Part shown: positions 3,998 to 39,261 of the stretch, piece by piece | Position numbering within the stretch: the first letter of the stretch is position 1 | Layout of the letters: every line of letters starts with the position of its first letter | NCBI RefSeq assembly: GCF_048403405.1 | Contig: NZ_CP183129.1 | Source: Escherichia coli | GTDB taxonomy: Bacteria; Pseudomonadota; Gammaproteobacteria; Enterobacterales; Enterobacteriaceae | DNA: 64,000 bases | Direction: 5' to 3' (one strand) | Translations under genes and position numbers: made by a program | The notes under the pieces: model-generated | What the model saw: only the letters and a program-made list of their open reading frames with translations | Databases searched by the model: none | Told to the model about the DNA's origin: nothing

Positions 3998-4057
3998 TAC
4001 TGCTCCTGAGATATTAACAGGAGTAAGTGTAGACGTTGGGAAATGATGTTTGTGAAG

Positions 4058-4906: not shown

Positions 4907-5013
4907 TTTGTTCTCCTTAATTATGTAAAGAGTATTTGATCATGTATACGCAATAAAAAACAGCTTCAGGTAATGAGGAATATCTCAATTTTTAAACATA
5001 AAATGCGAATTAC

Positions 5014-5615: not shown

Positions 5616-5706
5616 TCGCAGTGATCTATATGCCAACGTCATCTTATTTTTCATCTACTCCAACGAGTAGACAAGTTTTTTATTAAACCATTTATACCTT
5701 TTACGA

Positions 5707-6210: not shown

Positions 6211-9200
6211 TTTATTAAGCCACTGCAATCAGCTGCTGTTTTATATGCTTTATTCTCTTCTTCCATATGGGCCTTATCTCCACCACCAAAGCACTGATTA
6301 TTAATCTGCTTTCTGACCGAAGCGCACGCCAAATTTATCTCGTACCGTCTCAATATTTCTTTTCTCAGCATCTGAGGAGCGCAAGCTCTAGACTGGTTAC
6401 ATAATCTGTTTTTTTCATTTTGTAAGTCACTCAGGTTCTGGGGACTACAGTTACCACCAGGATTTACACCTGACTTATGTTCATCTGTTAATTTGTCGGC
6501 TTCTGGATTAACTTTACGGCCATATTGATCTCTGCGTTGTTGCCCACTTTGGATAACACCACCTGATGAAAATAAACCGCAACTCATCAGTGCTACAACA
6601 CTAAGAATTAACGGATTTAACCCTTGTGGGTCTATCTCTGAGATCGGATTTAACGGATACTGATAAAAATTCCATCCCCCCTTAAGCCCAATCGGATCCT
6701 GAGTGATATACCGCCCCTGCAGCGGGTCATAATAGCGGTGGCGGTTGTAATACAGGCCGGACTCCTCATCATACTGCTGACCCGGCAGGCGGATGAGCTG
6801 CTGCAGCTGATGCGGGTTCTCTTCATTCAGCAGGTTGCCCCATTCATCGTATTCTGCGTACCACGCTGTTGTCCCTTCCGTGCTGACAAGCGCCAGCGGC
6901 AGGCCGCGATGGTCGCAGTGGTACAGGTGGATTTTTCGCGCCGGCGTGTACACCGGGTCCATCTGGTTTTGCATCTGCTCCACCGTCAGGCCGCACGATG
7001 CCAGCCAGCGGCGGCTTTCCTCGCTCACCCGGTCAGTAAGGATTTCACTTTCCAGCCGGTCGAGCATCTGCACCAGCACCGGCGGGAACACCACTCTGCC
7101 ACCGTCTTCGCCGCCGGACTGCTGAAGGGCATCCGCCAGGCTGCGGCGCTGCGTTTTCGCCAGCTCACCGGTGGCGGTTTCAACTCTGATGAGTGGCGTG
7201 AAGCTCCCCGGCTGATAAACCGTCTGGATGCGGGTTCTGTCGTTCTGTATTGTGGTCAGCCGGTCGCCGTCCCAGCCGTACCAGGTCACTTCCGGTTTCC
7301 GTGACAGCGACATCCAGCCCGTCAGGTCCCGTTCACGCCGCCATACCCGTTTTGCCACCCTGCGGCCCAGCGGGTCGTAAAGATAGCGACTTTCGACCAG
7401 CGGCTCTGCATATTGTGTCCGCGTGTAGTGCACCAGCCGGTGCCGGCTGTCGTAATGATACCGGTGAGTCCGCTCATCATCCGTGCGGATAACCCCTTCC
7501 GGGATGAGGTCGGTTTTCTCTGTCAGCCTGCCGTGACGGTCATACCGGTAAAGATAGTGCGCGTCACGGGCGATACGGTTATCCGGCCACATGCTGAGGG
7601 TGCTGTCCGGGTGCAGCTCCGGGTCGGGCAGGCGGTTGCCTGCCGGGTCCGTGGCATACGGGATGCGGATATCCAGATTCGCTGCGGTGGTGTGGACGCC
7701 GGTCAGCCTGCCGGTGTCGCTGTAGCTGTAACTCCGGGTCTGGCGCGGGCTGCTGATGCGGATGAGTTCGCCGTTGTCGTTCCAGGTGTAATCGCGGTCA
7801 TACTGCAGGCTGTTCAGGTGCTGGCTCTGTAACTGCCCGGCAGAGGTGTAAGCGGTGGTGAGTTCATAACGGCCGAAGCTGCGCAGCGTTTCCCGGTGCA
7901 GGCGGTCGCGGGTGAAATCCACCAGCGGTGTGTCGCCGAGTTTCATGCCTGACAGCCAGCCGCTGCCGTAGGTCAGCCATTCCACGGCGGGCAGGCTGTC
8001 CGGTATACAGCGGTTCGCCAGTCCCTGCGCGTTGTACGCATGTCTGGTTTCATGCTGCCAGAGCAGTGCTTCCGTCTGCGGGTGATGCACCGTCTGGCGC
8101 TCACCGGTCAGGCGGCCTTTCTCATCATACCCGTAATGCACCGTCACCCGGTGGCCTTCGCTGAGATGGCTGATGCCTGTCAGCCAGCCGCGTTCGTCAT
8201 ACTGCCACTGCTCTGCAGGTTCACCCTTCACGGTGCGGTGAGTGAGGCGGTCTGCTTCGTCATAGTGCCAGTGGGTGACCAGCCCCTCATCCTCGCTGCG
8301 GATAAGTTTACCGGTCAGGTCGTGGTGATAACGCTGTGTGCGGCCGTCAAAGCCGGTTTCCTGTATCAGCCGGTCAAGTACATCGTAACGGAAGGTGGTG
8401 TGGCTGCCGTTTTCACTGGTCAGGCGGATGACCCGCCCGGCAGCATCGTATTCCATACTGCGCGTCAGACCGCCCTGCGTGGTACGAACGGGCTTTCCCC
8501 ACGCATCGTACTGTGTCCCGTTTCTGCTGCCGTCCGGGGCAATGACGGCGGTCAGGTCACCGGCGGCGTTGTATTCATACCGCGTTTCATGGCCCTGCGT
8601 GTCTTTCACCGCAATTAACTGTCCACGGCTGTCGTATGCGCGGTACTGACTCAGCCCTTCCTCGCGGTGCACCGCCGTCACCTGACCAAAACGGTCATGG
8701 TCATAACGGGTTACATAACCGGAACAGTCAGTGACGGTCAGCAACTGACCGTAACGGCTCCATGTCATGGTTTTCCGGCTGCCGGTGGCATCTTCCGTTG
8801 CGCAGGGTAAGTCACTGTGTGGATTATCATAACGGTAGCGGGTGATATCGCCGTTGTGTGCGGTTTCCTGAATCAGACGGCCGGATTCATCATATTTGCG
8901 GCGCAACTCCAGCCCGTCAGTCCCGGTGGCTGACGTTAACTGGTTGTGGTGGTTATAGTAAAATGCCGATGCCCTGCCATCCGGTGTGGTGATGCGCGTG
9001 ATGAGTCCCGTCACCACATCCGGGCTGTACTCAGTCGTCCGGCCTGCGGCATCCGTCTGTGCCTTAAGCCCGCCCACCGCGTCAAACTGACTCTGCGTGA
9101 CGCTGCCGTCCGCGTGTTCCTTTTTCACCACCCGCTTCAGCCCGCCTTCGCCCTGCGTGTGCAGCACTTCACGGCGGTCCAGACTGTCGGTGATGGTGAT

Positions 9201-10358
9201 GCGGTCTTTCTCATACTGATACGTGTAGCTTAAGCCTGCCGGGTTTAGCTGTTCTGTCACCCGCCCGTCGCTGTCGTAACGGTAACGGATATCCGGCCGG
9301 CCCGTGTGACGGTGCGCCACCATCCGGCCCCGGTATTTATCATCGTAAGTAAAGCTGCGCACCTGTGTATTGCTGCGGTCATACACCGCCGCCAGTTCGC
9401 CGCGTGGCGTCCAGCCATAGCGCACCAGCGGCGCGGCAGGTAAATTCTCCGGGTATTCCGGGTCGTGCGTCAGCCACACGGCAGACAGACGGATGCCGTT
9501 GTCCCGGCCATATTCGGTGTAACCCGGCAGGGTATCAGGAAAAACGGACGGTTCCGTCCCGCCGGAAATGGCCTGCTGCCGGGCTTCTTCTGCCCGCTGC
9601 GCCTGCGTGGTCAGTACCAGCCGGAAGTGACGCCCGGCACCATCCGTCACGCCGGTGATTTCGCCGCTGAATTCGCCGCCAGCCTCACGGTGAAACGTCT
9701 GTGTGCGCCCGAAGCGGTCCACCAGCCCGGTCAGTACCCGGTACGGCGGCAGCGGCGCGGGCAGCACCTCATCCGCCTCCGGCACCCGCTCACACCAGCC
9801 GAGTACCCACCACGGCCCCTGCGGACTGTTTGTCGCCAGATAACGATGCGGACTCAGGCGAAGCTCTTCCGGCAGCGCCTGCCAGAGTGCGGCCAGCCGG
9901 TGACCTTCATCCAGTTTCGCCACGCCGCCGCGCACCAGCCAGAGTGACTCGCTGCGGCTGTAACCGTCCTCACCGGGAAACAGGTGCTCAAAATACAGGC
10001 TTCTGCCGCCGTTATCACTGAGTGTCAGTGTGTTATCGCGCAGCTGTAAGCGGATATCCGCAGGCATTTTCCAGCCGGGGCCGAGGCTCCCCACCGGCGC
10101 GGGCGTTTTTGTCCGGTAACTGCTGTAGGTGCGGGAGAGGATGAACGGCAGCGGGCCGGGCAGGGCAAGGTCGGTTTCGCCGGGAAGGACCTTCGCACCG
10201 AGCAGCGGATTGACCGGATGGCCGGACGTCACCCCGCCGGGGCACACCGAACAGGCCACGCCGGTGGGGGCACCAATACGTACCCCGGCTGAACCCTGAA
10301 CAATGCTACCGCCATACTGCGTCATGTCGCCCTGACGCGCCGCCGGTTTTCCGCTCAT
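6207..10358 (-). CDS. rhsC: Rhs-family polymorphic toxin (YD-repeat protein) with variable C-terminal tip
   Basis: 1383-aa product; N-terminus [31 protein letters not shown] (PAAR-like), many YD repeats ([33 protein letters not shown]), and the core-ending PxxxxDPxGL region ([32 protein letters not shown]) followed by a ~140-aa divergent tip. Chromosomal context (ybfA, kdp) matches rhsC. Confidence 0.9.
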
Positions 10359-11211: not shown

Positions 11212-12884
11212 TGGCTGCGCAAGGGTTCTTACTGATTGCCACGTTTTTACTGGTGTTAATGGTGCTGGCGCGTCCTTTAGGCAGCGGGCTGGCGCGGCTG
11301 ATTAACGACATACCTCTTCCCGGTACAGCGGGCGTTGAACGTATACTCTTTCGTTTACCTGGCGTCTCTGACAGTGAGATGAACTGGAAGCAGTATCTCT
11401 CTGCCATTCTCGGCCTGAACATGCTGGGGCTGGCGGTGCTGTTTTTTATGTTGCTCGGTCAGCACTATCTGCCGCTTAATCCACAGCAGTTGCCAGGGCT
11501 GTCGTGGGATCTGGCGCTGAATACCGCCGTCAGCTTTGTCACCAATACCAACTGGCAATCTTATAGCGGTGAAACCACGTTGAGCTATTTCAGCCAGATG
11601 GCGGGCTTAACGGTACAAAACTTTCTTTCTGCCGCCAGCGGGATTGCGGTGATTTTTGCCCTCATTCGTGCGTTTACCCGCCAGAGCATGAGCACACTCG
11701 GGAATGCCTGGGTCGATCTGTTACGTATCACGTTATGGGTGCTAGTCCCTGTGGCGTTGTTGATCGCACTGTTTTTTATTCAACAAGGTGCACTGCAAAA
11801 CTTTCTGCCCTATCAGGCGGTGAATACCGTTGAAGGAGCGAAACAGCTGTTACCCATGGGTCCGGTGGCTTCTCAGGAAGCGATAAAGATGCTCGGCACT
11901 AACGGCGGTGGCTTCTTTAATGCCAACTCGTCGCATCCGTTTGAAAACCCAACCGCACTGACCAACTTCGTGCAGATGCTGGCGATCTTCTTGATCCCAA
12001 CGGCACTGTGCTTTGCCTTTGGCGAAGTGGCGGGCGATCGCCGTCAGGGGCGCATGTTGCTGTGGGCGATGTCAGTGATTTTTGTCATCTGCGTAGGCGT
12101 GGTGATGTGGGCAGAAGTTCAGGGTAATCCTCATCTGCTGGCGCTGGGTGCGGACAGCAGCATCAATATGGAAGGTAAAGAGAGCCGTTTCGGCGTGCTG
12201 GTCAGTAGCCTGTTTGCGGTCGTGACTACGGCGGCTTCCTGCGGCGCGGTGATTGCGATGCATGATTCGTTTACCGCCCCCGGTGGCATGGTGCCGATGT
12301 GGCTGATGCAAATTGGTGAAGTGGTATTCGGCGGTGTCGGTTCTGGTCTTTACGGCATGATGCTGTTTGTCCTGCTGGCGGTGTTTATTGCCGGGCTGAT
12401 GATTGGTCGTACACCGGAATATCTGGGTAAAAAAATCGACGTACGCGAGATGAAACTGACCGCACTGGCGATTCTGGTCACCCCGACGCTGGTGCTGATG
12501 GGCGCGGCGCTGGCAATGATGACCGACGCCGGACGTAGCGCCATGCTCAACCCGGGCCCGCATGGTTTTAGCGAAGTGCTGTACGCCGTGTCGTCCGCCG
12601 CTAACAACAACGGCAGCGCCTTTGCCGGATTAAGCGCCAACTCCCCATTCTGGAACTGTTTGCTGGCGTTCTGCATGTTTGTTGGTCGCTTCGGGGTGAT
12701 TATCCCGGTGATGGCAATTGCCGGTTCGTTGGTGAGTAAAAAGAGCCAACCCGCCAGCTCCGGCACGCTGCCAACGCACGGCCCGCTGTTTGTTGGCCTG
12801 TTAATCGGCACCGTGTTGCTGGTTGGCGCACTGACCTTTATCCCTGCCCTGGCGCTTGGTCCGGTGGCGGAATATCTCTCCTGA
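11211..12884 (+). CDS. kdpA: K+-transporting ATPase subunit A
   Basis: True start is the ATG at 11211 ([24 protein letters not shown]...), giving 557 aa. The track ORF from 11067 is an in-frame upstream extension spanning kdpF. Confidence 0.95.
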
Positions 12885-26362: not shown

Positions 26363-28027
26363 TTACTCGCCTACTTTCGCCCAGGTATCACGCAGCCCAA
26401 CGGTGCGATTAAATACCGGTTTTTCCGCCGTAGAATGGCGGCTGTCGAGGCAGAAATAACCTTCACGCTCAAACTGGAATGCTTTACCCGCTACCGCGTC
26501 TTTCAGAGACGGTTCAGCAAAGCCCTGTTTGATCACCAGCGATTCCGGGTTAATCACCGACAGGAAATCATCCGCAGCACCTGGGTTCGGCACGCTGAAC
26601 AGACGATCGTACAGGCGGATTTCAACCGGCAGCGCATGTGCCGAGCTCACCCAGTGAATAACGCCTTTCACTTTACGACCATCTGCCGGATCTTTGCTTA
26701 AGGTGTCGGCGTCATAAGTACAGAAGATGGTGGTGATATTGCCTTCGGCATCTTTCTCCACGCGTTCTGCCTTAATGACGTAAGCATTACGCAGACGCAC
26801 TTCTTTACCCAGCACCAGACGCTTGTACTGCTTGTTAGCTTCTTCGCGGAAATCGGCGCGGTCGATCCAAATCTCACCGCTAAACGGCACCTGACGGCTC
26901 CCCATTTCCGGTTTGTTCGGATGGTTCGGCATGGTAACCATTTCGCCTTCGCCCTGGTAGTTTTCGATAACCAGTTTCACCGGATCGATAACCGCCATTG
27001 CGCGCGGGGCGTTTTCGTTGAGATCTTCACGGATGCAGGATTCCAGCGACGCCATTTCAATGGTGTTGTCCTGCTTGGTCACGCCGATGCGTTTGCAGAA
27101 CTCACGAATAGAAGCCGCAGTGTAACCACGACGACGCAGACCGGAAATGGTCGGCATACGCGGGTCATCCCAGCCTTCAACGTGCTTGTCGGTCACCAGC
27201 AGGTTCAGCTTACGCTTGGACATCACAGTGTATTCCAGATTCAGGCGCGAGAATTCGTACTGGCGCGGGTGAACAGGAATGGTGATGTTGTCCAACACCC
27301 AGTCGTACAGGCGACGGTTGTCCTGGAACTCAAGCGTACACAGAGAGTGCGTAATACCTTCCAGCGCATCGCTGATGCAATGGGTGAAGTCGTACATCGG
27401 GTAGATGCACCACTTGTTGCCAGTCTGGTGGTGTTCAGCAAATTTAATGCGGTACAGCACCGGATCGCGCATTACGATAAATGGCGACGCCATGTCGATT
27501 TTCGCACGCAGGCAGGCTTTACCTTCTTCAAAACCGCCGGCACGCATTTTTTCGAACAGCGCCAGGTTCTCTTCAACGCTGCGGTCGCGGTACGGGCTGT
27601 TTTTACCCGGCTGCGTCAGGGTGCCACGGTATTCGCGGATCTGTTCCGGCGTCAATTCATCAACGTACGCCAGGCCTTTATTGATCAGTTCGATCGCATA
27701 GGCGTGGAGCTGATCAAAATAATCGGAGGAGTAACGGACGTTACCAGACCAGTGAAAACCTAACCACTCAACGTCGTTTTTGATCGACTCGACATACTCG
27801 ATATCTTCTTTTACCGGGTTAGTGTCGTCGAAACGCAGGTTGCACTGGCCTTTATAGTCCTGGGCGATCCCGAAGTTCAGGCAGATAGATTTCGCATGGC
27901 CAATATGCAGATAGCCATTCGGCTCCGGCGGGAAACGGGTGTGTACTGTGGTGTGCTTACCACTGGCCAGATCTTCATCGATGATCTGACGGATAAAGTT
28001 AGTCGGGCGGGCTTCTGCCTCACTCAT
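26363..28027 (-). CDS. glnS: Glutaminyl-tRNA synthetase
   Basis: 554 aa; class I motifs HIGH (LHIGHAKS) and KMSKS-type (VMSKRKL). Confidence 0.97.
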
Positions 28028-28246
28028 CGTGGATTCCTCAAAGCGTAAACAACGTATAACGGCGTATGATCTTATAAGCGGGACAGGCTGACAACTGTTA
28101 GTTAGTGAAAAAGTGGTTTTGCGTAAGATATTGGGGCGTTTTCTGCGCTACAGCCAGCAGATCCTCGCGCTGGAGACGTAAGGCCAAACGTCGCCAGCCT
28201 GACGCGTCTATTAAATTTCCGGATGAGCTGGCCGCAGAGTCGTAGA

Positions 28247-29008
28247 TTAATCGGCTATGATTAAACGCGTCGATAAGGACGCAAGCGTTCTACGCGTCTG
28301 CCCATCAAGCTGATTATCCGTAATAATCTCTGTCAGTTCATTAAGATGCGCGATATTAAACAGCGACCATGAACCGTATTTTGAGCTGTCAGCCAGGAGA
28401 ATTTTGCGCGAAGCATGCGCGATAAGATCGCGTTTTAGTGCGGCTTTCTCTTCCGTGGGTGCTGTAATACCCTTTTCAAGATCCCAGCTGTTACAGCTTA
28501 AAAATGCCACGTCCGGCCAGGTATTTTGCAGCAATTTACGACCATGTTCGCCAATGCAGGACTGGCTGGAGTCGTCGATACGTCCACCGATAATCGTCAC
28601 TTCAATCTGCTTGAATTCAGCCAAAAAAAGCGCGATATGCAGGTCGCTGGTGATCACGCGAAGCGGTAAATGTGTAATCTGCCGCGCAAGTTCAATCATT
28701 GTCGTACCGGCATCAAGGACGACGGAATCCCCCGCTTTGACCATTGACGCCGCTGCGCTGGCGATGGCATGTTTTTCCGCCAGGCTGCGCTGCATTTTCT
28801 CATGGGTAGTCGGTTGGGTAGGAATAAACCGGTTGAGGGTCACACCGCCGTGTGTACGGCTGATAACACCCTGCTCATCGAGTTTTATCAGGTCTCGACG
28901 AATCGTGGCCGGCGACGCATTGGTTACCGCCACCAGCTCATCAACGGTGACCAGATTATGGCTTTTCAGGTAATCCATGATCTGCTCTAACCGGTTATAT
29001 CCCTTCAT
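28247..29008 (-). CDS. DeoR-family transcriptional regulator (island gene)
   Basis: 253 aa with N-terminal HTH ([37 protein letters not shown]) and a DeoR-type C-terminal sugar-phosphate sensor domain. Its start codon lies 1 nt from the stop of the upstream PdxA-family gene. Confidence 0.8.
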
Positions 29009-29009
29009 T

Positions 29010-29996
29010 TTATTCTCGCGAAATCTGCATTGCTAACTGGATGGAAACTGCCATGCTCTCAGACTTGGCTTTTCCTGTCCAGGCAATATCAAACGCGGTG
29101 CCGTGGTCGGCAGAAGTGCGAATAAATGGCAACCCGGCGGTGATATTCACCCCATCATAAAATCCAAGCAGTTTTAAAGGGATATGCCCCTGATCGTGGT
29201 ACATAGCCACTACCATATCGAATAGCCCTTCATGGCATTGCATAAACACGGTATCTGGCGGGCACGGGCCAGTAACATCAATATCTTCGGCCTGCATTGC
29301 TTCAATCGCAGGCGCGATAATCTCGATTTCTTCAGTGCCGAATAAACCGTGTTCCCCTGCATGTGGATTTACACCCGCCACGGCAATACGCGGACGCTCA
29401 ATACCAACACGTTTCAGGAAGTGGTTCGCAACTCGAATAACCGTTTTGACCCTTTCACCATTCAAAGTATCCAGGAATTTACGCAGTGAGATATGCGTCG
29501 AAATATGGATAACCTTGAGCTTATCGGTATAGAGCACCATCGCGTACTCTTTGCTGCCGGTAAGATGGGCCAGCAATTCCGTATGCCCCGGATAGTTATG
29601 CCCGCCAAGATGCAACGCTTCTTTATTCAGCGGCGCAGTGGCTATGGCTTTCACCTCGCCTGATAAGGCCAGGGCCGTTGCACGTTTGATACAGCGATAC
29701 GCTAAATCGCCTGCCGCAGCCTGTACCACTCCGGGTGTCAGCGCATCGGGGTTAGCCAGCGGCTCATCCATCACGTTAATCACGCCGGGAGCAAAATGGG
29801 CGTCGCACACCTTTTCAATGACGCGTAACTCTGCCTTCGGCGTGATATTCATCGCCATAATACGTCTCAGCGTGCGCACACAGCCCACCACCACCACCGG
29901 GGCACCAGCAAGCCCGGCTTCGCTCAGGGATTTAATAATGATCTCCGGGCCAATACCCGCCGGGTCGCCCATCGTTACCGCAATAATATTATTCAC
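29010..29996 (-). CDS. PdxA-family NAD-dependent dehydrogenase (PdxA2-like)
   Basis: 328 aa; N-terminus [22 protein letters not shown] matches the PdxA GxPxGIGPE signature, and [11 protein letters not shown] matches the conserved metal-binding His region. Confidence 0.8.
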
Positions 29997-31227
29997 TACG
30001 CTTCTCCTCGATAAAATTCAGAACCTGATGCAACGTGGTCTCATCGCCAAACCCACCGGCTTTCGTCATCACCGAACGGGACCAGACGCCGCCCAGAAAG
30101 TGACCGTATGGAACGCATTGCGCCACCTTCGCCGTAATACGAAATCCGGTCGCGCCTAACGCACTGGCTGTTGCCATTGCGACATCACCACCAGAGAGAT
30201 AAAGCGCATCGGGCATTGCGCGAAGCAGAACTTGCCGGGTAAGTTCGCCAAGAAACCGGCAAATTTTTTCCCCAAGCGCAGCGCGACTCATCTGCCAACG
30301 CTGGCAAAGGGTGTCGATCTGGTGCCTTGCTACAGAATCGTTACAGGTGTGGACAATGCAGTGGTCGCCTTTCTGCAAGGCCTGCACAATACGCGCGTCA
30401 TAGTCACTGGCATTGCCTGCCAGAATGTGTTCAACATCGACGTATATCTGTGTGATACGTGGGTGTGAATGAAGTGTGGCGATCTGCCGTTGAGCGATTT
30501 CGCTCATTGAACCAATAATGGCCAGCACGGTGGGTGGCGGCATAATCGTGGAGCGCCGGGCAACGGCATCACAAATACCAGCGGAGCCGACCAGCAGCAG
30601 CGGTTGTTTAGCCTGCATCACAGCGGCAGCGATGCGATCCAGGTCGCTGTCCGTCTGCGCATCTATCACGCCAATCCACGGTTGCTCATAAGACAAATGG
30701 CTGAGCTGAGAAACCGTAACGGGCTGGCATGGAATGGCCGTCTGCAACCGGATGATGTCCGCAATTCGGGCGCTCAATACCGGGGTTTTCGGATCGCTGG
30801 CAAACTCGGTTTCCGTTATCCGCACACCGTTTACCCAACACTCACCGGCCACTGTGGTCCTTCCCGCCTGAGGAAATGCGGGGGCAACCACTGCGCCCGT
30901 TATACCGCATGCCTTCATCAGGGCTTCAATTTCTGCGCCAATATTGCCTCGCAGCGTGGAATCTATCTTTTTAATCACGAGCGGAGGGTTATTCGCCAGA
31001 GGGAGATGACTCATCAGCGAGGTTATTTTCATCGCCGCCAGCTTAGGATCCATCGCCCGGCTGTCGCTGTTAATCACCCATACGCTGGCATCACCGCGAT
31101 AAGGCATTTCAAAGGCCACATCAACTGTATGCCCCACCTGCGCCAGGCTTACCCCCGCGTCATTGGCTCCCGTGAAATCATCGGCAACGACGAGAATGCT
31201 CGGCTTAGTGATTCCCTTTTCCATCAT
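29989..31227 (-). CDS. DUF1537-family four-carbon acid-sugar kinase
   Basis: N-terminal signature VVADDFTGANDAG characteristic of OtnK/DtnK-type kinases; 8-nt overlap with the downstream PdxA-family gene. Start chosen at the ATG preceded by GGAG (MMEKGITKPS...); the track ORF starts 13 codons upstream. Confidence 0.75.
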   Translation of the reverse strand: MMEKGITKPSILVVADDFTGANDAGVSLAQVGHTVDVAFEMPYRGDASVWVINSDSRAMDPKLAAMKITSLMSHLPLANNPPLVIKKIDSTLRGNIGAEIEALMKACGITGAVVAPAFPQAGRTTVAGECWVNGVRITETEFASDPKTPVLSARIADIIRLQTAIPCQPVTVSQLSHLSYEQPWIGVIDAQTDSDLDRIAAAVMQAKQPLLLVGSAGICDAVARRSTIMPPPTVLAIIGSMSEIAQRQIATLHSHPRITQIYVDVEHILAGNASDYDARIVQALQKGDHCIVHTCNDSVARHQIDTLCQRWQMSRAALGEKICRFLGELTRQVLLRAMPDALYLSGGDVAMATASALGATGFRITAKVAQCVPYGHFLGGVWSRSVMTKAGGFGDETTLHQVLNFIEEKRSE

Positions 31228-31264
31228 CACTCCAGGTTGTTTTATGATAACAATGATTATATTC

Positions 31265-31278
31265 AATCACGATTGATT
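31265..31278. promoter_or_regulatory. Operator-like inverted repeat AATCA-cgat-TGATT in the island divergent promoter
   Basis: Read directly; shares the TGATT/AATCA half-site with the second palindrome at 31360..31375. Confidence 0.4.
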
Positions 31279-31359
31279 AAATGTGAGCAAGCTCAAGTTA
31301 TTAATCACTCGAATAAATTATAAAATTAGACCATGTTACGTAGGCTACGGCATTTTGAA

Positions 31360-31375
31360 TGATTGAATTCAATCA
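31360..31375. promoter_or_regulatory. Perfect 16-bp palindrome TGATTGAATTCAATCA in the island divergent promoter
   Basis: Read directly; lies about 20 bp upstream of the Fe-ADH GTG start, consistent with a repressor operator. Confidence 0.45.
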
Positions 31376-31393
31376 CCAGAAGAGAGGTTATTT

Positions 31394-32551
31394 GTGGTAA
31401 TTATCAATAGCACGATACTGAGCGGCGCAGGCGCTATCCCTTCCCTGACGTCGCTCTTACCCGACATCAGAAAAATGCTGCTGGTCACTGACCGTAATAT
31501 TGCGCAGCTCGACGGTGTGCAGCAGATTCGCGCCTTACTGGAAAAGCACTGCCCGCAGGTTAACGTTATCGATAATGTGCCCGCAGAGCCCACGCATCAT
31601 GATGTGCGCCAGCTAATGGACGCCCCTGGCGATGCCTCTTTTGATGTGGTGGTCGGGATCGGCGGTGGCAGCGTGTTGGATGTGGCGAAGCTGCTATCGG
31701 TGCTTTGCCATCCACAATCACCAGGGCTGGATGCGCTGCTTGCGGGTGAAAAACCGACTCAGAGGGTGCAATCATGGTTGATTCCTACAACCGCCGGAAC
31801 CGGCTCAGAAGCCACGCCGAATGCGATTCTGGCAATCCCTGAGCAAAGCACGAAGGTGGGTATTATTTCCCCGGTGCTGTTACCAGACTATGTGGCGCTT
31901 TTCCCGGAACTGACCACCAGCATGCCCGCGCATATTGCGGCGTCCACGGGCATTGATGCTCTTTGCCACTTACTGGAGTGTTTTACCGCGACCGTGGCAA
32001 ATCCGGTCAGCGATAACGCGGCGCTGACTGGGTTAAGTAAGCTTTTCCGGCACATTCAACCCGCCGTGAACGATCCTCAGGATCTGCGCGCAAAACTGGA
32101 AATGCTGTGGGCGTCTTACTATGGCGGCGTAGCGATAACCCATGCGGGCACGCATCTCGTTCATGCGCTCTCCTACCCGTTAGGTGGCAAATATCATCTG
32201 CCGCATGGCGTCGCGAATGCCATCTTGCTGGCGCCGTGCATGGCGTTTGTTCGCCCCTGGGCGGTCGAGAAATTTGCCCGGGTCTGGGATTGCATTCCCG
32301 ATGCGGAAACCGCCCTGAGCGCGGAAGAAAAATCTCATGCCCTGGTGGCCTGGCTACAGGCATTAGTCAATCAACTCAAGCTACCCAACAATCTCGCGGA
32401 TCTCGGCGTACCGCCAGAGGATATTGCCTCTCTTAGCGAGGCGGCACTGAACGTGAAGCGCCTTATGAACAATGCGCCGTGCCAGCTTGATCTACAGGAC
32501 GTACAGGCCATTTACCAAACACTGTTTCCGCAACATCAATTTAAGGAATAA
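31394..32551 (+). CDS. Iron-containing (group III) alcohol dehydrogenase family oxidoreductase
   Basis: 385 aa; NAD-binding GGGSxxD motif (VGIGGGSVLDVAKLL) and conserved His cluster (HALSYPLGGKYHLPHGVANA). GTG start preceded by GAGAGG. Confidence 0.8.
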   Translation: MVIINSTILSGAGAIPSLTSLLPDIRKMLLVTDRNIAQLDGVQQIRALLEKHCPQVNVIDNVPAEPTHHDVRQLMDAPGDASFDVVVGIGGGSVLDVAKLLSVLCHPQSPGLDALLAGEKPTQRVQSWLIPTTAGTGSEATPNAILAIPEQSTKVGIISPVLLPDYVALFPELTTSMPAHIAASTGIDALCHLLECFTATVANPVSDNAALTGLSKLFRHIQPAVNDPQDLRAKLEMLWASYYGGVAITHAGTHLVHALSYPLGGKYHLPHGVANAILLAPCMAFVRPWAVEKFARVWDCIPDAETALSAEEKSHALVAWLQALVNQLKLPNNLADLGVPPEDIASLSEAALNVKRLMNNAPCQLDLQDVQAIYQTLFPQHQFKE

Positions 32552-32554
32552 ATC

Positions 32555-33442
32555 ATGCCGAAAACCATTGAAGGTGTATTAACCGCCATCGTCACCCCGT
32601 TTACCGCGACCGGCAGTCTGAATATCCCGGCGTTAAAAGTGCAGGTGAATCGTCAACTGGAAGCGGGTAACGCGATTTTTTGCGGCGGCACCAACGGCGA
32701 GTTTTTTGTGTTGAATGAACAGGAGAAGCTCAGCGTTACGCAAACCTGCGTGGATGAAGTGGCTGGTCGTGCGCCGGTCGTGGCACACATTGGCGAGATC
32801 TCGACGCGCGAAACGATTCGTCTGGGTCAGCAGATTGAAAAACTTGGCGTAGATGCTGTGTCGGTCATTACCCCTTACTTCGTACCGCTGAAACAGGAAG
32901 AGTTGATTGCGCATTACAGCGCAATTGCCGACGCGCTGAGCATTCCGATGTTTCTCTATAACATCCCGGCCCGCACTGGCAATACGATCCAGCCGGAAAC
33001 CGCGCGTGCTCTGGCGTCGCATCCCAATATCATTGGGATTAAAGACAGCGCCGGAAGCGACGAAAGCCTGAAGGGTTTTCTCGATGCTGTGCGCAACATT
33101 GACGGCTTTAATGTACTCAACGGCCCGGATTCGCTGATCCATAAAGGGTTTGTCGAGGGGTGTTCAGCCTGTATCTCTGGGCTCGCCAACGTCGCACCGC
33201 GGGAAATCAATGCTATCTGGTCTCGCGTCCATGCCGGTGATATTGAAGGGTCTTATGAAGCACAGGAGAGTGTAACGGGCCTGCGTACCGACCTTTATAA
33301 AGTAGCGTTCTCCCCGGCTGCGGTGAAAAAAGCGTTGCAGCTTATGGGGCATGATGTTGGTGATAGCCGCTACGCGGTTAATTTCACGCCTGAACAGATC
33401 AGCGAGATTCAACAAATTATTCGTCATTATAACATTAATTAA
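32555..33442 (+). CDS. DHDPS/N-acetylneuraminate-lyase-family class I aldolase or dehydratase
   Basis: 295 aa; GTNGEF motif (CGGTNGEFFVLNEQEK), the Tyr-containing ITPYF segment and the Schiff-base lysine context IGIKDSAG, typical of DapA/NanA-family enzymes. Confidence 0.8.
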   Translation: MPKTIEGVLTAIVTPFTATGSLNIPALKVQVNRQLEAGNAIFCGGTNGEFFVLNEQEKLSVTQTCVDEVAGRAPVVAHIGEISTRETIRLGQQIEKLGVDAVSVITPYFVPLKQEELIAHYSAIADALSIPMFLYNIPARTGNTIQPETARALASHPNIIGIKDSAGSDESLKGFLDAVRNIDGFNVLNGPDSLIHKGFVEGCSACISGLANVAPREINAIWSRVHAGDIEGSYEAQESVTGLRTDLYKVAFSPAAVKKALQLMGHDVGDSRYAVNFTPEQISEIQQIIRHYNIN

Positions 33443-33501
33443 ATTAACTCTATTATCCAGCCCGCGATAAAGTTTAGATAAAGAGAATAAAGGATTACTC
33501 C

Positions 33502-34260
33502 ATGTTTTTGTGGTTTATGCAGCCAGATATCTGGCTCACTTTAATTACCCTCACCTTTCTGGAAATTATTCTTGGGGTGGATAATATTATTTTTCTTTCA
33601 CTGGTGGTGGCAAAACTTCCGTTATCACAACAAAATATGGCGCGTAAACTGGGTTTAAGCTGCGCGATGATTATGCGGATATTATTGCTGATATCCATTG
33701 CGTGGCTTTCACATATTACCCAGCCGCTTTTTACCGTGCTGACGCTGGAGATTTCGTTCCGCACGTTGATTCTGCTCGGGGGCGGGCTGTTCCTGATTTA
33801 TAAAGCGATACAGGAGATACGCGAAGAGCTGTCGCCCGCGCAGGAAGACGAACATGGCAGCGGATCGCGGCAACTGTCGTTGTGCGGTGCCATCGTACAG
33901 ATAATGCTGCTCGATATCGTGTTTAGCCTGGATTCGGTGATCACCGCCGTCGGCCTTTCTCAGCATATATTTATCATGATTGCCGCCGTAATGATTGCCG
34001 TCGGTGTCATGATGTTTGCGGCGAAAACAATTGGTGATTTCGTTAACGCCACGCCGTCAATAAAAATACTGGCGTTAACCTTTTTATTATTTGTCGGTGT
34101 ATTGCTGGTTGCCGATAGTCTCAACATTCATATTGCCAAAGAGTATCTCTACTTCGCGATATTTTTCTCATTAAGTGTTGAGACACTCAATATTATCCGT
34201 GAAAGAAGAAATAAAAAAGTTTCGACATTGATCGAAACGCATGAATCGCACTCGCATTAA
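33502..34260 (+). CDS. TerC-family integral membrane protein
   Basis: 252 aa, multiple TM segments, paired TerC motifs GVDNIIF and LDIVFSLDSV. Confidence 0.7.
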   Translation: MFLWFMQPDIWLTLITLTFLEIILGVDNIIFLSLVVAKLPLSQQNMARKLGLSCAMIMRILLLISIAWLSHITQPLFTVLTLEISFRTLILLGGGLFLIYKAIQEIREELSPAQEDEHGSGSRQLSLCGAIVQIMLLDIVFSLDSVITAVGLSQHIFIMIAAVMIAVGVMMFAAKTIGDFVNATPSIKILALTFLLFVGVLLVADSLNIHIAKEYLYFAIFFSLSVETLNIIRERRNKKVSTLIETHESHSH

Positions 34261-34295
34261 TAAATCTATTACCGACTTTAAGATGGAGTCTAACT

Positions 34296-35465
34296 ATGTC
34301 TGTAGCCCTTATTCGTGACGGCGTCATCCGTCCATCCGAAAACGATTCGCATGTGCTTACCGCCATGCTGCCCTCGTCCTGCCCACAAAACCACGCGGCG
34401 AATATTCTGCCTTTGCCGGATGGCGCGTTAATGTGCGTCTGGTTTGCGGGAACGCAGGAAGGTATTGCCGATATTTCTGTCTGGGGATCGCGATTGCCCG
34501 CTGGCGGGATGCAGTGGAGCGATGCGGTCAAACTTTCCCACGATGACACGCGTTCAGAGCAAAACCCAGTGCTGTTTCTCGCGCCGGATAACGTGCTGTG
34601 GCTGCTATGGACCGCACAAATATCCGGGAATCAGGACACCGCCATCGTCCGCTACCGTAAGTCAGACGACCTCGGACAAACCTGGGGCGAGATTGCCACG
34701 CTGCTCGATAAACCCGGCACGTTCATTCGCCAGCCGATCACGGTGCTTGATAACGGCAACTGGCTGCTGCCCGTCTTTTATTGCCGTACCCAACCCGGTG
34801 AAAAATGGGTCGGCAATGATGATATCAGCGCAGTGAAAATTTCCGCTGACGGTGGTCACTCCTGGCGCGATGTCGTGGTGCCGCAAAGTCTCGGCTGCGT
34901 TCATATGAATATCACAATGCTGCACGACAGTACGTTGGTTGCTCTCTTTCGAAGCCGTTGGGCAGACAACATCTATATCAGCCATTCAGTGGACAACGGC
35001 GAGAGTTGGTCGGTGCCGCAAGCTACCGAATTGCCCAACAACAATTCGTCTATTCAGGTAACGACGCTTGCCAGCGGCGAACTGGCGCTGGTGTACAACG
35101 CGATGAGTGCGGCAGGCGCAGTAGAACGTCGCGCGTCGCTTTATGACGAAATCGACGATGGCGACGACAGCCGCAAAGAACCGACAGCCGTCGGACGCTC
35201 CGCTTTCTGGGGGGCCCCACGCGCGCCGATGACGGTAGCGATTTCTGCCGATGGTGGGAAAAGCTGGCCGTGGCGGCGCAATCTCGATGAAGGCGACGGC
35301 TACTGCATGACCAACAATTCCCTGGAAAAGCTAAATCGTGAGTTCTCCTACCCCAGCATCAAACAAAGCCCGGACGGTACGCTACATATCGCTTACACCT
35401 GGTGGCGTCAGGCCATCAAGTACGTGCGCATCTCCCCCGAGTGGGTTAAGGGGCAGGCATCATGA
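34296..35465 (+). CDS. BNR/Asp-box repeat protein (sialidase-like beta-propeller), apparently cytoplasmic
   Basis: 389 aa with four Asp-box motifs (SDDLGQTW, SADGGHSW, SVDNGESW, SADGGKSW). The N-terminus MSVALIRDGVIRPSENDSHV has no signal-peptide features. Confidence 0.75.
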   Translation: MSVALIRDGVIRPSENDSHVLTAMLPSSCPQNHAANILPLPDGALMCVWFAGTQEGIADISVWGSRLPAGGMQWSDAVKLSHDDTRSEQNPVLFLAPDNVLWLLWTAQISGNQDTAIVRYRKSDDLGQTWGEIATLLDKPGTFIRQPITVLDNGNWLLPVFYCRTQPGEKWVGNDDISAVKISADGGHSWRDVVVPQSLGCVHMNITMLHDSTLVALFRSRWADNIYISHSVDNGESWSVPQATELPNNNSSIQVTTLASGELALVYNAMSAAGAVERRASLYDEIDDGDDSRKEPTAVGRSAFWGAPRAPMTVAISADGGKSWPWRRNLDEGDGYCMTNNSLEKLNREFSYPSIKQSPDGTLHIAYTWWRQAIKYVRISPEWVKGQAS

Positions 35466-35932
35466 TTATCGGTAATCTCAACCATTTGTCGCTGGCGGGG
35501 CTTCCCGCCTGGGTGAGAAATATTCTGCTGTGCCCGGAGTGTTCGTTATCGGCGTTATCCGCCAGAGAGGACGGTCGCTGGCAACCTGAAGGATGTCGGT
35601 GGTTCTGCACGCTGGGAACTTCAGACACGCAACCCGCCGAACTCCGCCATACGGAGTATCACCATCTGTGGGCCGATATCCAGGTGGTGATTACTGGTTG
35701 TGAGGGCATTAATGCGGGAACGCGGCCCATCGCTCGCGAAAACGATGAAGAACGTAAGCCCGATCTGTTTATCGCCCCATCCCCTGAAAACAGTGTCGCC
35801 ATCACTCTACACCCCGGTGATTTCGCCGTCTTTATGCCTGAGGAACCTCACCAGGCGCTGTGCGCGATTGGCGCGGCTACGTCAGTACGCAAAGCGGTCT
35901 TTAAGGTACCGCGCGACATGCTGGAAGCCTAA
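35462..35932 (+). CDS. YhcH/YjgK/YiaL (DUF386) family protein
   Basis: 156 aa; C-terminal segment LHPGDFAVFMPEEPHQALCAIG resembles the conserved PGxFxVFxPxEPH motif of the YhcH/EbgC-like family. 4-nt overlap with the upstream BNR gene. Confidence 0.7.
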   Translation: MIIGNLNHLSLAGLPAWVRNILLCPECSLSALSAREDGRWQPEGCRWFCTLGTSDTQPAELRHTEYHHLWADIQVVITGCEGINAGTRPIARENDEERKPDLFIAPSPENSVAITLHPGDFAVFMPEEPHQALCAIGAATSVRKAVFKVPRDMLEA

Positions 35933-35945
35933 AAGGAGAGAAAAA

Positions 35946-37226
35946 ATGACAATGGAAATGATCCTGGCATTAGGAATACTGGTCCTGATGATCGTGCTGA
36001 TCATGTCGGACAAAATGCCATTTGGCGCACCGCCACTGCTTGCGTGTTTATTGCTGGTTGTCTCGGGACTTTCGACCGTTCAACAGGCTTTTGCCGGATT
36101 CGTCAATCCAAGCGTGGTGATGATTGCAGGGTTTATGGTGGTCATGGCAGCGCTACAAAAAACCCGGCTTATCAGCAACGTTAAATCTGCGATGATAAGC
36201 CTGGTCAATAAAGGCAGTTACCGCAGCTACGGGCTGTTGTTAGTCATTGTTATGCTGGGTGCCAGTCTTGCAGGCACCGGCGCGACCGGTTATTACGTGC
36301 TGATTCTGTCGCTGGTATCCACCATTCCGTACAGTAAAAAGCTACCAACATCGAAATTAATGATGCCCCTGGGATTTGCCACCAACCACCCGCTTCTTCC
36401 TATCAATCTCGCGCTTCTCTTTGGCGTTACGGCGACCGTACTCGAAACCGCGGGTTTTCATCAGGAGATTTCGATGGGGCGCTTTGCGCTGGTGAATCTC
36501 ATCATGTCAGCGGCGTTCCTCGCATGGAGTCTTATTGCCTACCGTTTTCTTCCGGATCATCCCATTGCGGATGCTTCCGAGGATGCGCTGGCGGCACGCG
36601 AGGAAACGTTTAACGCCCTTCCTGCCTGGAAAGAATATTGCACTATTGCCGCATTCGCTGTCAGCGTTATCGGCATGATGCTAATGAACATTCTGGGAAA
36701 TATCGCCTTCGTTATTCCGGGTCTTGCGGGTGCGTTTGTTCTGATGATCGATGTACTGGACTTTAAAGAAGTTCGCGATCATATGGGAGCGCCGGTCATT
36801 TTAATGATGGCGGGGGTGATCGGTGTAGCTGATGCACTGGCGGGCACCGGCTTTACGGCGATGGTTGGCGATGCCGTTGCAGGTGTGCTCGGTTCTGGCG
36901 TCTCACCGTTTGTATTTATTGTCGCCTTTGCTTTGCTTACCAGTACCTGCGCCACCTTCACGGGTTCGAATATGGGGTCTGTTTATATTTTTGCCCCCAT
37001 CGCCATTGCCGCCTGTACCAGCCTTGGGCTTAACCCGACCGCTGCAGCGATTGCGGTGGTGATTTCAGGCTGGAACGGCGGCTATATGCCTATTGACGGA
37101 ATGCCAGCCATGATCCTCGGAATGGGGAAATACAAACTTCCCGAATTCTGGGTGTTCTCTGTACCAATGTATCTCATCCGCATTCTGGCGCTTTGTGCAG
37201 GCGCTGTTTTTATCTTCCCAATGTAA
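35946..37226 (+). CDS. Ion-transporter-superfamily anion permease (GntP/CitMHS/DASS-like), putative sugar-acid importer
   Basis: About 426 aa of polytopic membrane protein from the ATG at 35946 preceded by AGGAGA. The track ORF 35700..37226 carries an 82-codon non-membrane extension that overlaps the YhcH gene in another frame. Confidence 0.7.
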   Translation: MTMEMILALGILVLMIVLIMSDKMPFGAPPLLACLLLVVSGLSTVQQAFAGFVNPSVVMIAGFMVVMAALQKTRLISNVKSAMISLVNKGSYRSYGLLLVIVMLGASLAGTGATGYYVLILSLVSTIPYSKKLPTSKLMMPLGFATNHPLLPINLALLFGVTATVLETAGFHQEISMGRFALVNLIMSAAFLAWSLIAYRFLPDHPIADASEDALAAREETFNALPAWKEYCTIAAFAVSVIGMMLMNILGNIAFVIPGLAGAFVLMIDVLDFKEVRDHMGAPVILMMAGVIGVADALAGTGFTAMVGDAVAGVLGSGVSPFVFIVAFALLTSTCATFTGSNMGSVYIFAPIAIAACTSLGLNPTAAAIAVVISGWNGGYMPIDGMPAMILGMGKYKLPEFWVFSVPMYLIRILALCAGAVFIFPM

Positions 37227-37234
37227 TCTCAGAC

Positions 37235-37272
37235 AAAAAAAGCGGCAGAGAAGATCCCTGCCGCTTTTTATT
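37235..37272. terminator. Bidirectional rho-independent terminator between the island permease and nagE
   Basis: Hairpin agcggcagagaagatccctgccgct flanked by an A-run and a T-run; a REP-like palindrome gatgcgacgctgccgtgtcgcatc follows at 37277..37300. Confidence 0.65.
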
Positions 37273-37314
37273 GTTGGATGCGACGCTGCCGTGTCGCATC
37301 AGGTATAAAGCAGA

Positions 37315-39261
37315 TTACTTTTTGATTTCATACAGCGGCGTTTGACCCGCCACGACATGGCCCTGAGCTTTAATGATCAAGCCGCTGAAATCGTCGATAT
37401 TGCTGCAAACCACCGGGCTAATCATCGAGCGGGCGTTAGCGTTCAGGTAATCCAGATCCATTTCCAGAATCGGTTGTCCTGCGCTTACCTGCGCGCCCTC
37501 TTCCACCAGACGTTTAAAACCTTTACCTTCCAGCGCTACGGTGTCGATACCCATATGGACGACGATCTCCGCGCCTTTTTCGGTTTCCAGGCAGAACGCG
37601 TGGTTGGTATTGAAGATTTTCACGATTGTCCCTGCGGCTGGTGATACGACGATTTTATCTGTCGGTTTCACCGCCACACCGTCACCCACCGCTTTGCTGG
37701 CGAATGCTTCGTCAGGAACCTGATCCAGTGCCACAACATCACCGGTAATCGGCGATACCAGCTCCGCGACAGACACCGCGTTTGGTATAGCCTGCGGTTT
37801 TGCTACAGGCGCGGCAGTTGCAGGCGCAGTTTCAGCTGACGTAGCGGCTACCGGACCACGGGCAACAACTTTCTTCATTGCATCGCCAATGGATTCCGCT
37901 TTCGCGCCAACAATCACCTGAATAGTCTGTTTGTTCAGTTTCACTACCCCAGAAGCACCCAGCCGTTTACACATCGCATCGTTGACGCGAGCCGAGTCAA
38001 CCACGGTCAGGCGCAGACGAGTAATACAGGCGTCAATTGCTTTCAGGTTGTCAGTGCCGCCAACCGCAGCAATATAGTTGGTCGCCAGTTGATTGAGGCC
38101 TTCTTCAGTGTTGCTGTTGGCTTCTTCAGTAACGATCTCATCTTCTTTATCTTCACGACCCGGCGTTTTCAGGTTGAACATGCGGATAACCAAACTGAAC
38201 ACCACGAAGTAGATAGCGAAGAAGACAACACCCATCACCAGCAGCATCCAGACGTTCTGGCTGGCGGCCGGCAGGTTATACATCAACGCGTAGTCGATAG
38301 CCCCCGCAGAGAAGGAGAAGCCCGCGTGGATACCCAGCAGCGTTGCCACAAACAGGCTGATACCGGTCAGCAGTGCGTGCAGGAGGTACAGCAGCGGCGC
38401 AAGGAACATGAACAGGAATTCCAGCGGCTCAGTCACACCGGTCAGGAACGCAGTAACAGCAACAGAAAGCAGCATACCGCCAACCATCGGACGACGCTCT
38501 TTCGGTGCTGCAAAGTACATCGCCAGCGCCGCACCCGGCAGACCGAACATCATGATCGGGAAGAAGCCGGACATGAACATCCCCGCGGTGCCGTCACCGG
38601 CATAGAAGCGGTTGATGTCACCGTGGAAAACCGTACCCGCCGCGTTGGTGAATTCACCAATCTGGAACCAGGCGATGGTGTTCAGTACCTGATGCAGACC
38701 GGTTGGGATCAGCAGACGGTTGATGAAACCAAAGATACCGGAACCCAGCGCGCCCGCAGAAACGATCCACTCGCCGCCTGCATGGATAGCGTGCTGTACC
38801 GGCGGCCAGACGTAACCAAAAATGGCCGCCAGCACCAGGCAGAAGAAGCCGGTGGCAATCGGCACAAAGCGTTTGCCGCCGAAGAAACTCAGGAAGTCCG
38901 GCAGTTTAATATCGGACCAACGGTTATAAGCTGCGCCACCAACCAGACCGGTAATGATACCCGCCAGTACACCCATGTTAATTTCCGGGTTGATGGTCAC
39001 CATCGCTTTGGTTAACACAAAGTAACCTACCGCACCCGCCAGCGCCGCCGCACCTGCGCTGTCTTTCGACCAGCTGGATGCCACACCGATGGCGAAGATT
39101 AATGCGAGGTTATCAAAAATCGCACCGCCCGCCTGGGCAATAAACGCAACGTTAAGTAAATCTGGCTGACCGAATCGCAGCAACAGCGCCGCCACCGGCA
39201 GCACCGCGATAGGGAGCTGTAACGCCCTACCGAGTCGCTGGAAAAAACCTAAAATATTCAT
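37315..39261 (-). CDS. nagE: PTS N-acetylglucosamine-specific EIICBA component
   Basis: 648 aa; EIIC membrane domain, EIIB Cys region (IDACITRLRL) and C-terminal EIIA domain. Confidence 0.95.
   Translation of the reverse strand: MNILGFFQRLGRALQLPIAVLPVAALLLRFGQPDLLNVAFIAQAGGAIFDNLALIFAIGVASSWSKDSAGAAALAGAVGYFVLTKAMVTINPEINMGVLAGIITGLVGGAAYNRWSDIKLPDFLSFFGGKRFVPIATGFFCLVLAAIFGYVWPPVQHAIHAGGEWIVSAGALGSGIFGFINRLLIPTGLHQVLNTIAWFQIGEFTNAAGTVFHGDINRFYAGDGTAGMFMSGFFPIMMFGLPGAALAMYFAAPKERRPMVGGMLLSVAVTAFLTGVTEPLEFLFMFLAPLLYLLHALLTGISLFVATLLGIHAGFSFSAGAIDYALMYNLPAASQNVWMLLVMGVVFFAIYFVVFSLVIRMFNLKTPGREDKEDEIVTEEANSNTEEGLNQLATNYIAAVGGTDNLKAIDACITRLRLTVVDSARVNDAMCKRLGASGVVKLNKQTIQVIVGAKAESIGDAMKKVVARGPVAATSAETAPATAAPVAKPQAIPNAVSVAELVSPITGDVVALDQVPDEAFASKAVGDGVAVKPTDKIVVSPAAGTIVKIFNTNHAFCLETEKGAEIVVHMGIDTVALEGKGFKRLVEEGAQVSAGQPILEMDLDYLNANARSMISPVVCSNIDDFSGLIIKAQGHVVAGQTPLYEIKK

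Follow-up and report, generated by a model that had tools for sequence, protein, structure and literature searches.

The island and its TerC gene

We examined a window of 64,000 nucleotides (nt) from Escherichia coli (RefSeq assembly GCF_048403405.1, contig NZ_CP183129.1; the window is the whole stretch of DNA analysed), which carries a nine-gene island inserted in E. coli between glnS and nagE. The window is chromosomal, and is 100% identical to strain GN02461. The third gene of the island's six-gene operon encodes a TerC-family membrane protein, and it is this gene, here called TerC, with which we are concerned. The initial annotation, made from the letters alone, had placed it between a lyase gene and the gene for a BNR protein with short gaps on either side, and so it lies, with spacers of 59 and 35 nt:

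31394..32551, + strand: Fe-dependent alcohol dehydrogenase (Fe-ADH), first gene of the operon (Pfam Fe-ADH and ADH_Fe_C, RefSeq)
32555..33442, + strand: DHDPS/NanA-family pyruvate aldolase, the "lyase" (Pfam DHDPS, 208 bits)
33443..33501, + strand: DHDPS-TerC spacer, 59 nt, with a Shine-Dalgarno sequence AAGGA at 33490-33494
33502..34260, + strand: TerC-family (YgdQ-type) membrane protein gene, 252 amino acids (aa), ATG start (list of open reading frames and Pfam PF03741)
34261..34295, + strand: TerC-BNR spacer, 35 nt, with a Shine-Dalgarno sequence GGAG at 34285-34288
34296..35465, + strand: BNR_2 sialidase-fold protein, cytoplasmic (Pfam BNR_2, 216 bits)
35462..35932, + strand: YhcH/NanQ-like (DUF386) protein, overlapping the BNR gene by 4 nt (Pfam DUF386, NCBIfam YhcH subfamily)
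35946..37226, + strand: SLC13/DASS-like anion permease, last gene of the operon, 426 aa, RefSeq start
37186..37216, + strand: terminator-like hairpin and T-run at the 3' end of the permease gene, the likely operon end (pattern match only)

The family assignment is borne out from end to end: the PF03741 TerC profile matches at 157.3 bits (cutoff 27.8; E=4.3e-46), with residues 15-205 spanning profile positions 1-177 of 178; TerC is the sole Pfam domain of a short architecture that has no CBS or CorC domains; and the identical RefSeq protein, WP_000480546.1, is annotated "TerC family protein". Sequence comparison confirms 33502-34260 as a real, intact TerC-family gene and not a chance reading frame. 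Hydropathy predicts six to seven membrane segments, with E21 and D27 in the first, and D138 and D144 in the fourth or at the boundary of the fourth and fifth; these four residues align with E86, D92, D216, and D222 of Alx, and are invariant across 13 aligned island TerC and YgdQ sequences. Mn2+ export by Alx needs five acidic residues, those four together with E213.

The relatives of the protein fall into two tiers, orthologs from other islands (70-80% identity, 253 aa) and the housekeeping YgdQ proteins of Enterobacterales (61-64% identity, 236-238 aa). It scores below cutoff for both the YkoY subfamily (NCBIfam TIGR03716, 85.6 against 138.5) and the YjbE subfamily (TIGR03717, 67.4 against 134.8), and within the known TerC family it is a new paralog belonging to the YgdQ branch. 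A search by sequence for relatives of TerC, the permease, and the BNR protein in the PDB found none. A histidine-rich C-terminus was considered as a metal site and rejected, the ETHESHSH tail being confined to E. coli while other island orthologs end in ...LELNK.

Operon membership, likewise proposed at the outset, is upheld. A consensus scan found no convincing + strand terminator in either gap flanking TerC, and the only good + strand terminator-like hairpin is that at 37186-37216; the YhcH and permease genes are 13 nt apart. From the tight spacing, the lack of an internal terminator, and a gene order kept across genera and at both known chromosomal locations, together with the transfer of TerC as part of the cassette (below), we infer that TerC is co-transcribed as the third gene of an operon running from Fe-ADH to the permease. 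Candidate internal promoters and terminators around TerC were discarded, such matches being no commoner than in shuffled sequence. An Rfam E-value scan of 28000-37400 returned nothing relevant and no yybP-ykoY Mn riboswitch, and an Rfam scan of three orthologous loci (Kluyvera, K. oxytoca, and Metakosakonia) gave no match, again with no yybP-ykoY riboswitch. A literature search found no paper on expression of the island.

Island TerC is a paralog of ygdQ

Island TerC and E. coli K-12 YgdQ share 62% aa identity (E=6e-98) over 237 of 252 residues. DNA resembling ygdQ was found in 5425 of 5426 complete E. coli genomes; about 19% of them have the island copy on top of it. In neighbour-joining trees (all trees here were built by this method, without bootstrap) the island TerCs form a sister clade to the Enterobacterales YgdQ orthologs. 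Because its context differs from the mutH-ygdQ-ygdR locus, and because it lacks the pairing site for MgrR, island TerC is a paralog of ygdQ rather than its ortholog. MgrR is a small RNA induced by low Mg2+ or Ca2+, and ygdQ mRNA is among its main targets (PMC6239178). The pairing site lies at ygdQ codons 3-6 and is absent from the island copy; the predicted duplex dG is -21.6 kcal/mol for ygdQ, and -11.3 kcal/mol for the island copy, equal to the mean for shuffled sequence.

The two proteins have in common a layout of roughly seven helices and identical E..DN and D..DS intramembrane motifs. Unlike YgdQ (b2832), island TerC is accessory and belongs to a DeoR-controlled catabolic operon, has a C-terminal extension of roughly 15 aa, and carries group-specific substitutions such as LSDH to LSQH and WK to YK. 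The ygdQ knockout is one of 54 Keio mutants that lose Ca-driven carbonate precipitation (PMC12707652), a weak lead for a cation role.

Island TerC also resembles Alx and the Vibrio parahaemolyticus TerC, both of which export Mn, in its Pfam family and in keeping four of the five Alx export residues; it differs in being 22-23% identical, in having neither the roughly 60-residue N-terminal extension nor the long central loop of Alx, and in lacking a yybP-ykoY/PRE riboswitch upstream. Bacillus subtilis MeeF (YceF) and MeeY (YkoY), of the same family, export Mn, metalate exoenzymes, and support the SwrC exporter, MeeY being the functional partner of that transporter, and so set a precedent for a TerC working with another membrane transport machine; unlike these, the island protein scores below the YkoY and YjbE subfamily cutoffs, the island codes for no exported enzyme, and the proposed partner is an importer.

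TerC accompanies one of two uptake modules

With the BNR protein as marker we fetched 80 species-level loci and scored each for all island genes. The cassette in 64 of them (variant A) consists of Fe-ADH, the aldolase, a 470-aa SSF (PF00474) Na+:solute symporter, BNR, YhcH, and a short-chain dehydrogenase (SDR), with no TerC; the hosts are Enterobacter, Leclercia, Lelliottia, Kosakonia, Pantoea, Erwinia, Pectobacterium, Dickeya, Gilliamella, and others, and a typical case is Enterobacter asburiae (L013), with the symporter in the TerC slot (8587-9999) and the SDR at the end (11633-12310). Variant B comprises Fe-ADH, the aldolase, TerC, BNR, YhcH, and the SLC13-like permease, and was found at 13 loci in the marker set and 18 overall, the five extra loci having been reached by other routes. 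TerC occupies the exact slot of the symporter, and the permease that of the SDR. Nowhere in the 80-locus set does TerC occur together with the SSF or SDR gene; all TerC cassettes examined in Enterobacterales and Aeromonas carry the permease; and the SDR is missing from every permease-type cassette. The form in which the substrate is imported may differ between the symporter and permease versions.

The variant-B order recurs in eight or more genera, with loci in Kluyvera, Metakosakonia, the Klebsiella oxytoca group, Pseudocitrobacter, other Escherichia, and one Enterobacteriaceae genome, and further loci in Citrobacter rodentium, Salmonella enterica subsp. salamae, Scandinavium, and Klebsiella sp. 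WP4. The cassette is located between ptrR and marC outside E. coli and between glnS and nagE in E. coli, and has therefore moved as a unit with TerC inside. The TerC-BNR gap is 26-50 nt in 13 of 13 variant-B loci measured. GC-rich hairpins without T-runs are seen in the DHDPS-TerC gaps of several genera (L002 8719-9000, L008 8985-9209, and L077 8917-9212), and may be intra-operon processing or attenuation elements. Two of the clusters are degraded: that of C. rodentium (L088) has lost DeoR, PdxA2, DtnK, and YhcH and kept Fe-ADH, the aldolase, TerC, BNR, and the permease; in that of S. salamae (L090) no gene is called at the place of BNR, and TerC, YhcH, and the permease remain.

In the BNR tree variant B falls as one clade inside variant A, the aldolase tree gives nearly the same picture, and in several genera the two variants share a chromosomal site; the variant A enzymes are orthologous to those of the island (60-85% identical). 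The simplest reading of these comparisons is a single in-situ replacement of SSF and SDR by TerC and the SLC13 permease. No symporter remnant could be found in the DHDPS-TerC gap by tblastn (E up to 10).

Firmicute-type cassettes with the same enzyme set and mostly a sigma-54 regulator, in which the permease is the only transporter, were found in Anaeromicropila herbilytica, Bacillus salacetis, and two metagenomic contigs (permease genes at L086 10001-11281, L087 10001-11284, L098 9001-10275, and L099 9001-10281). Their permeases are 75-78% identical to that of the island and the accompanying enzymes 25-45%, which argues that the permease gene crossed phyla. The metagenomic cassette L098 has as its divergent neighbour a gene for an 881-aa P-type cation ATPase with Ca2+/Mg2+-type domains (272-2917); this may be a weak lead, or, as a single case, coincidence.

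In two Aeromonas enteropelogenes assemblies (L093 3097-12939, and L096) a 10-kb island of 38-50% GC lies within flanks of 55-63% GC, and has the order Fe-ADH, aldolase, BNR, YhcH, SLC13, 121 nt, TerC, 82 nt, and a KdgM oligogalacturonate porin (variant D). The enzymes of this island have their nearest counterparts in the variant A cassettes of Leclercia and Enterobacter. Its TerC shares 80-81% identity with housekeeping YgdQ and 55-59% with variant-B TerC, and nests within the YgdQ clade. Variant D thus represents a second, independent recruitment of a YgdQ-type TerC beside the same permease: by sequence, two YgdQ-family genes joined permease cassettes, at two positions, and none joined the 64 symporter cassettes.

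Within the ion-transporter superfamily the permease itself is divergent; the only domain passing its cutoff is the broad Pfam CitMHS (86 bits against 31.9), and TIGR00785 "dass" falls short (56.4 bits against 198.6). An open reading frame at 35700-37226 (508 aa, GTG start, overlapping YhcH) was rejected as an over-extended permease, orthologs and RefSeq both placing the start at 35946; the over-long version persists in one database entry (APEC O1). A CitM/CitH-type metal-citrate carrier, which would account directly for a metal exporter, was considered and, no citMHS equivalog being found, is kept as a weak possibility only.

Occurrence, selection, and disruption in E. coli

The island is present in 1047-1048 of the 5426 complete E. 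coli genomes (about 19%), is always chromosomal, and its carriers include ST131, ST95, ATCC 25922, E2348/69, and BEN2908. A TerC match of at least 80% coverage occurs, at a single place, in all 1047 carrier genomes, and the gene is one uninterrupted piece in all of the 30 sampled rows but avian pathogenic BEN2908, where it is split by IS1 (NZ_LR740776.1 703369-705168, corresponding to window 33200-34500); an extra 502 bp in this strain proved to be the IS1 insertion and not a different gene, and BEN2908 is thus a natural TerC knockout. The island has been described as the uncharacterised "GR 6" in a study (PMC12928451) that lists every open reading frame except TerC, an omission explained by IS1 interrupting TerC in BEN2908. 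Our literature search found no paper on this TerC gene, and the island appears only in that study; nor did these searches find any description of the setting in which island TerC lies.

Across seven variant-B loci dN/dS is 0.058 for TerC, 0.049 for the permease, and 0.07-0.15 for the enzymes, values that are rough, dS being saturated; variant-B TerC, which has diverged by about 25% at the aa level, is under strong purifying selection. Two E. coli-derived entries are in-frame deletion fusions, P0315 joining TerC 1-83 to the permease from residue 61, and P0042 joining TerC 1-150 to the C-terminus of BNR; such fusions suggest that the island is decaying in some lineages.

The divergent arm and the probable substrate

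Upstream of the operon the island continues on the opposite strand:

28247..31224, - strand: divergent arm with the DeoR regulator, PdxA2, and DtnK
28247-29008, - strand: DeoR regulator (RefSeq)
29010-29996, - strand: PdxA2, D-threonate-4-phosphate dehydrogenase (NCBIfam equivalog above cutoff, RefSeq)
29989-31224, - strand: DtnK, D-threonate kinase (NCBIfam equivalog above cutoff, RefSeq)
31225..31393, no strand: putative divergent control region from dtnK to the Fe-ADH gene (annotated gene ends and sequence)

The two NCBIfam equivalogs of this arm are matched at 681 bits for NF002891 (cutoff 583) and 532 bits for NF047819 (cutoff 450). Further upstream, beyond the annotated stretch, local GC reaches extremes of 0.40 and 0.62 at positions 4001-6000 and 8001-10000.

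The island calls to mind the sialic-acid (nan) clusters, with which it has in common a sialidase-fold protein, a YhcH-family protein, a DHDPS/NanA aldolase, and in most species an SSF symporter (SiaT-type in nan). Unlike those clusters, it encodes no protein that reaches a nan equivalog cutoff, the aldolase falling below all NCBIfam equivalog cutoffs; the downstream steps are a D-threonate kinase and dehydrogenase; and the sialidase-fold protein is cytoplasmic, no signal peptide being found when its N-terminus was checked. An AlphaFold2 model of this BNR protein (pLDDT 91) has a compact six-bladed GH33-like fold (TM about 0.7), at 12-16% identity to GH33 enzymes. We know of no nan cluster that includes a TerC gene.

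From the enzyme set we infer a ulosonic acid substrate whose aldol product is reduced to D-threonate, and probably an undescribed ulosonic-acid pathway. Plausibly, and as a hypothesis, the substrate is 3-deoxy-D-lyxo-hept-2-ulosaric acid (Dha) of pectic rhamnogalacturonan-II: the cytoplasmic sialidase-fold enzyme and the YhcH-type protein would prepare the ulosonic acid, the aldolase would split Dha into pyruvate and threo-2,3-dihydroxy-4-oxobutanoate, Fe-ADH would reduce the latter to D-threonate, and DtnK and PdxA2 would convert D-threonate to dihydroxyacetone phosphate. The assignment of pyruvate and D-threonate as products of Dha is our own stereochemical derivation. As a dicarboxylate Dha fits a DASS-like permease; also consistent with Dha are the concentration of the cassette in pectinolytic and plant-associated bacteria, the oligogalacturonate lyase gene that adjoins the Scandinavium cassette, and the KdgM porin in the Aeromonas island. 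Among the retrieved papers mentioning heptulosaric acid, none dealt with bacterial Dha catabolism. We wish to stress that the conclusions regarding TerC do not need the Dha assignment.

What might TerC do in the operon?

TerC tracks the uptake module and not the enzymes, since only permease-type cassettes carry it and the enzymes occur elsewhere without it. Our best explanation overall, to which we give a probability of about 0.4, is that TerC is a functional inner-membrane protein of the YgdQ branch, forms part of the uptake module, and acts as a divalent-cation exporter co-induced with the permease. It would move Mn2+, Ca2+, or Mg2+ out of the cytoplasm by way of its intramembrane Glu/Asp pairs; import and breakdown of a strongly chelating dicarboxylic ulosonic acid could perturb cytoplasmic Mn, Ca, or Mg, a cation load that TerC would offset. 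Chelation by the substrate outside the cell might also lower free Mg2+ and Ca2+, induce MgrR, and so repress ygdQ mRNA, in which case the island copy, having no MgrR site, would supply YgdQ-type activity while the housekeeping copy is down. The sequences show the family, the paralogy to ygdQ, the synteny, the purifying selection, and the co-variation with the permease; the ion specificity, the direction of transport, the physiological rationale, and the substrate of the pathway are conjectured from them.

A number of observations weigh against this explanation: i) the identity of the ion and the direction of its transport are extrapolated from Alx, only 23% identical, and the position of Alx E213, needed for Mn export there, is a methionine (M135) in island TerC; ii) the weak DASS match and the lack of a TIGR citMHS hit leave no evidence that the permease carries a metal-bound substrate; iii) TerC is absent from the operon in 4 of 4 Firmicute-type cassettes (L086, L087, L098, and L099), and from an Actinobacillus (Pasteurellaceae) cassette with a 52%-identical permease (L080), and these five cassettes indicate that the permease has no strict need of TerC; iv) variant B arose once, so that its 18 loci amount to one event plus retention, and variants B and D are the only two independent pairings of TerC and permease; v) a weak promoter-like match (9/12) overlaps the end of the DHDPS gene, and the DHDPS-TerC gap ranges from 59 to 296 nt across orthologous loci, often with a hairpin, from which partly independent expression of TerC is possible; and vi) one lineage at least (BEN2908) gets by without an intact TerC.

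A close rival, which overlaps with export by TerC and which the sequence alone does not separate from it, is that TerC directly helps the permease, either with insertion or stability in the enterobacterial membrane, or by handing over metal to the permease or its substrate. This would fit the strict co-occurrence of TerC and SLC13 in variants B and D, their direct adjacency in D, the import of the permease across phyla at 75-78% identity as compared with 25-45% for the enzymes, and the Pasteurellaceae permease, which at 52% identity does without TerC; there is precedent in MeeY, which interacts with SwrC and enables it, and in the copurification of MeeF and MeeY with secretion machinery (the Sec translocon). 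Yet the Firmicute-type permease operons also do without TerC, and two enzyme genes part it from the permease in variant B, and we think a helper of this kind unlikely, if well worth keeping in view. That TerC is instead an organic-solute transporter, either bringing in the substrate as a second carrier or releasing an intermediate such as D-threonate or the C4 semialdehyde as a safety valve, takes up the suggestion of a "second transporter" in the initial annotation. The suggestion survives in part: TerC co-varies with transporter genes and took the exact operon slot of the symporter, and the TerC family is grouped with LysE/RhtB-type exporters, whose LysE fold exports amino acids in other families; the Firmicute operons, however, manage with the permease as their only transporter, which makes TerC improbable as an importer of the substrate and unlikely as the main one. 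Moreover, every characterised TerC handles metal cations, the metal-binding acidic pairs are invariant, and the variant-D copy is so close to housekeeping YgdQ (80-81%) as to argue against a new specificity. Solute transport of either kind strikes us as decidedly improbable, and for TerC an accessory role in ion transport seems likelier than one as a further importer of substrate.

It is also conceivable that TerC is a passenger captured when the operon was rebuilt, contributing a generic extra YgdQ activity or none, and the single origin of variant B (by which co-occurrence may be inherited linkage), the IS1 insertion tolerated by BEN2908, and the natural deletion fusions P0315 (TerC-SLC13) and P0042 (TerC-BNR) would all agree with that. 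A passenger would hardly be expected to show strong purifying selection (dN/dS 0.058 at about 25% aa divergence, with dS saturated), to survive in the degraded clusters of C. rodentium and S. salamae, to have a second YgdQ-type counterpart independently recruited beside the same permease, or to persist at 80% coverage or more in 1047 carriers and unbroken in every sampled row except BEN2908, and we rate this account lower still. The initial annotation had further proposed that TerC might supply metal to island enzymes, that is, deliver Mn or Fe to, for example, Fe-ADH or PdxA2. The operon does code for members of metal-dependent enzyme families (Fe-ADH, PdxA), and TerCs metalate enzymes in Bacillus; but the enzymes so served there are exported or membrane enzymes with extracytoplasmic active sites, and characterised TerCs move metal outward, whereas the BNR protein has no signal peptide and the other island enzymes belong to cytosolic families. 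The 64 SSF operons have orthologs of these enzymes (60-85% identical) that work without TerC, five SLC13 operons likewise lack it, and TerC co-varies with transporters and with no enzyme, so that we regard metal delivery as very improbable indeed and do not support it.

Implications

If cation export by TerC is correct, a YgdQ-type TerC and the permease would together form a module that imports a chelating anion and exports a cation, and a change of transporter, here from a Na+ symporter to an anion permease, can bring an ion-handling accessory gene along with it. It is rather doubtful, taken jointly, that this two-gene module exists as proposed and that the island is the first catabolic pathway for Dha; were both to hold, they would provide a first physiological role for the orphan ygdQ and explain a trait of part of the E. 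coli population. The unstudied island is present in roughly one in five complete E. coli genomes and in many bacteria associated with plants. TerCs of the YgdQ type occur across the Enterobacterales, that of E. coli being without an assigned function, and a ygdQ paralog fixed in a catabolic operon offers an inducible setting in which to probe the function of the YgdQ branch.

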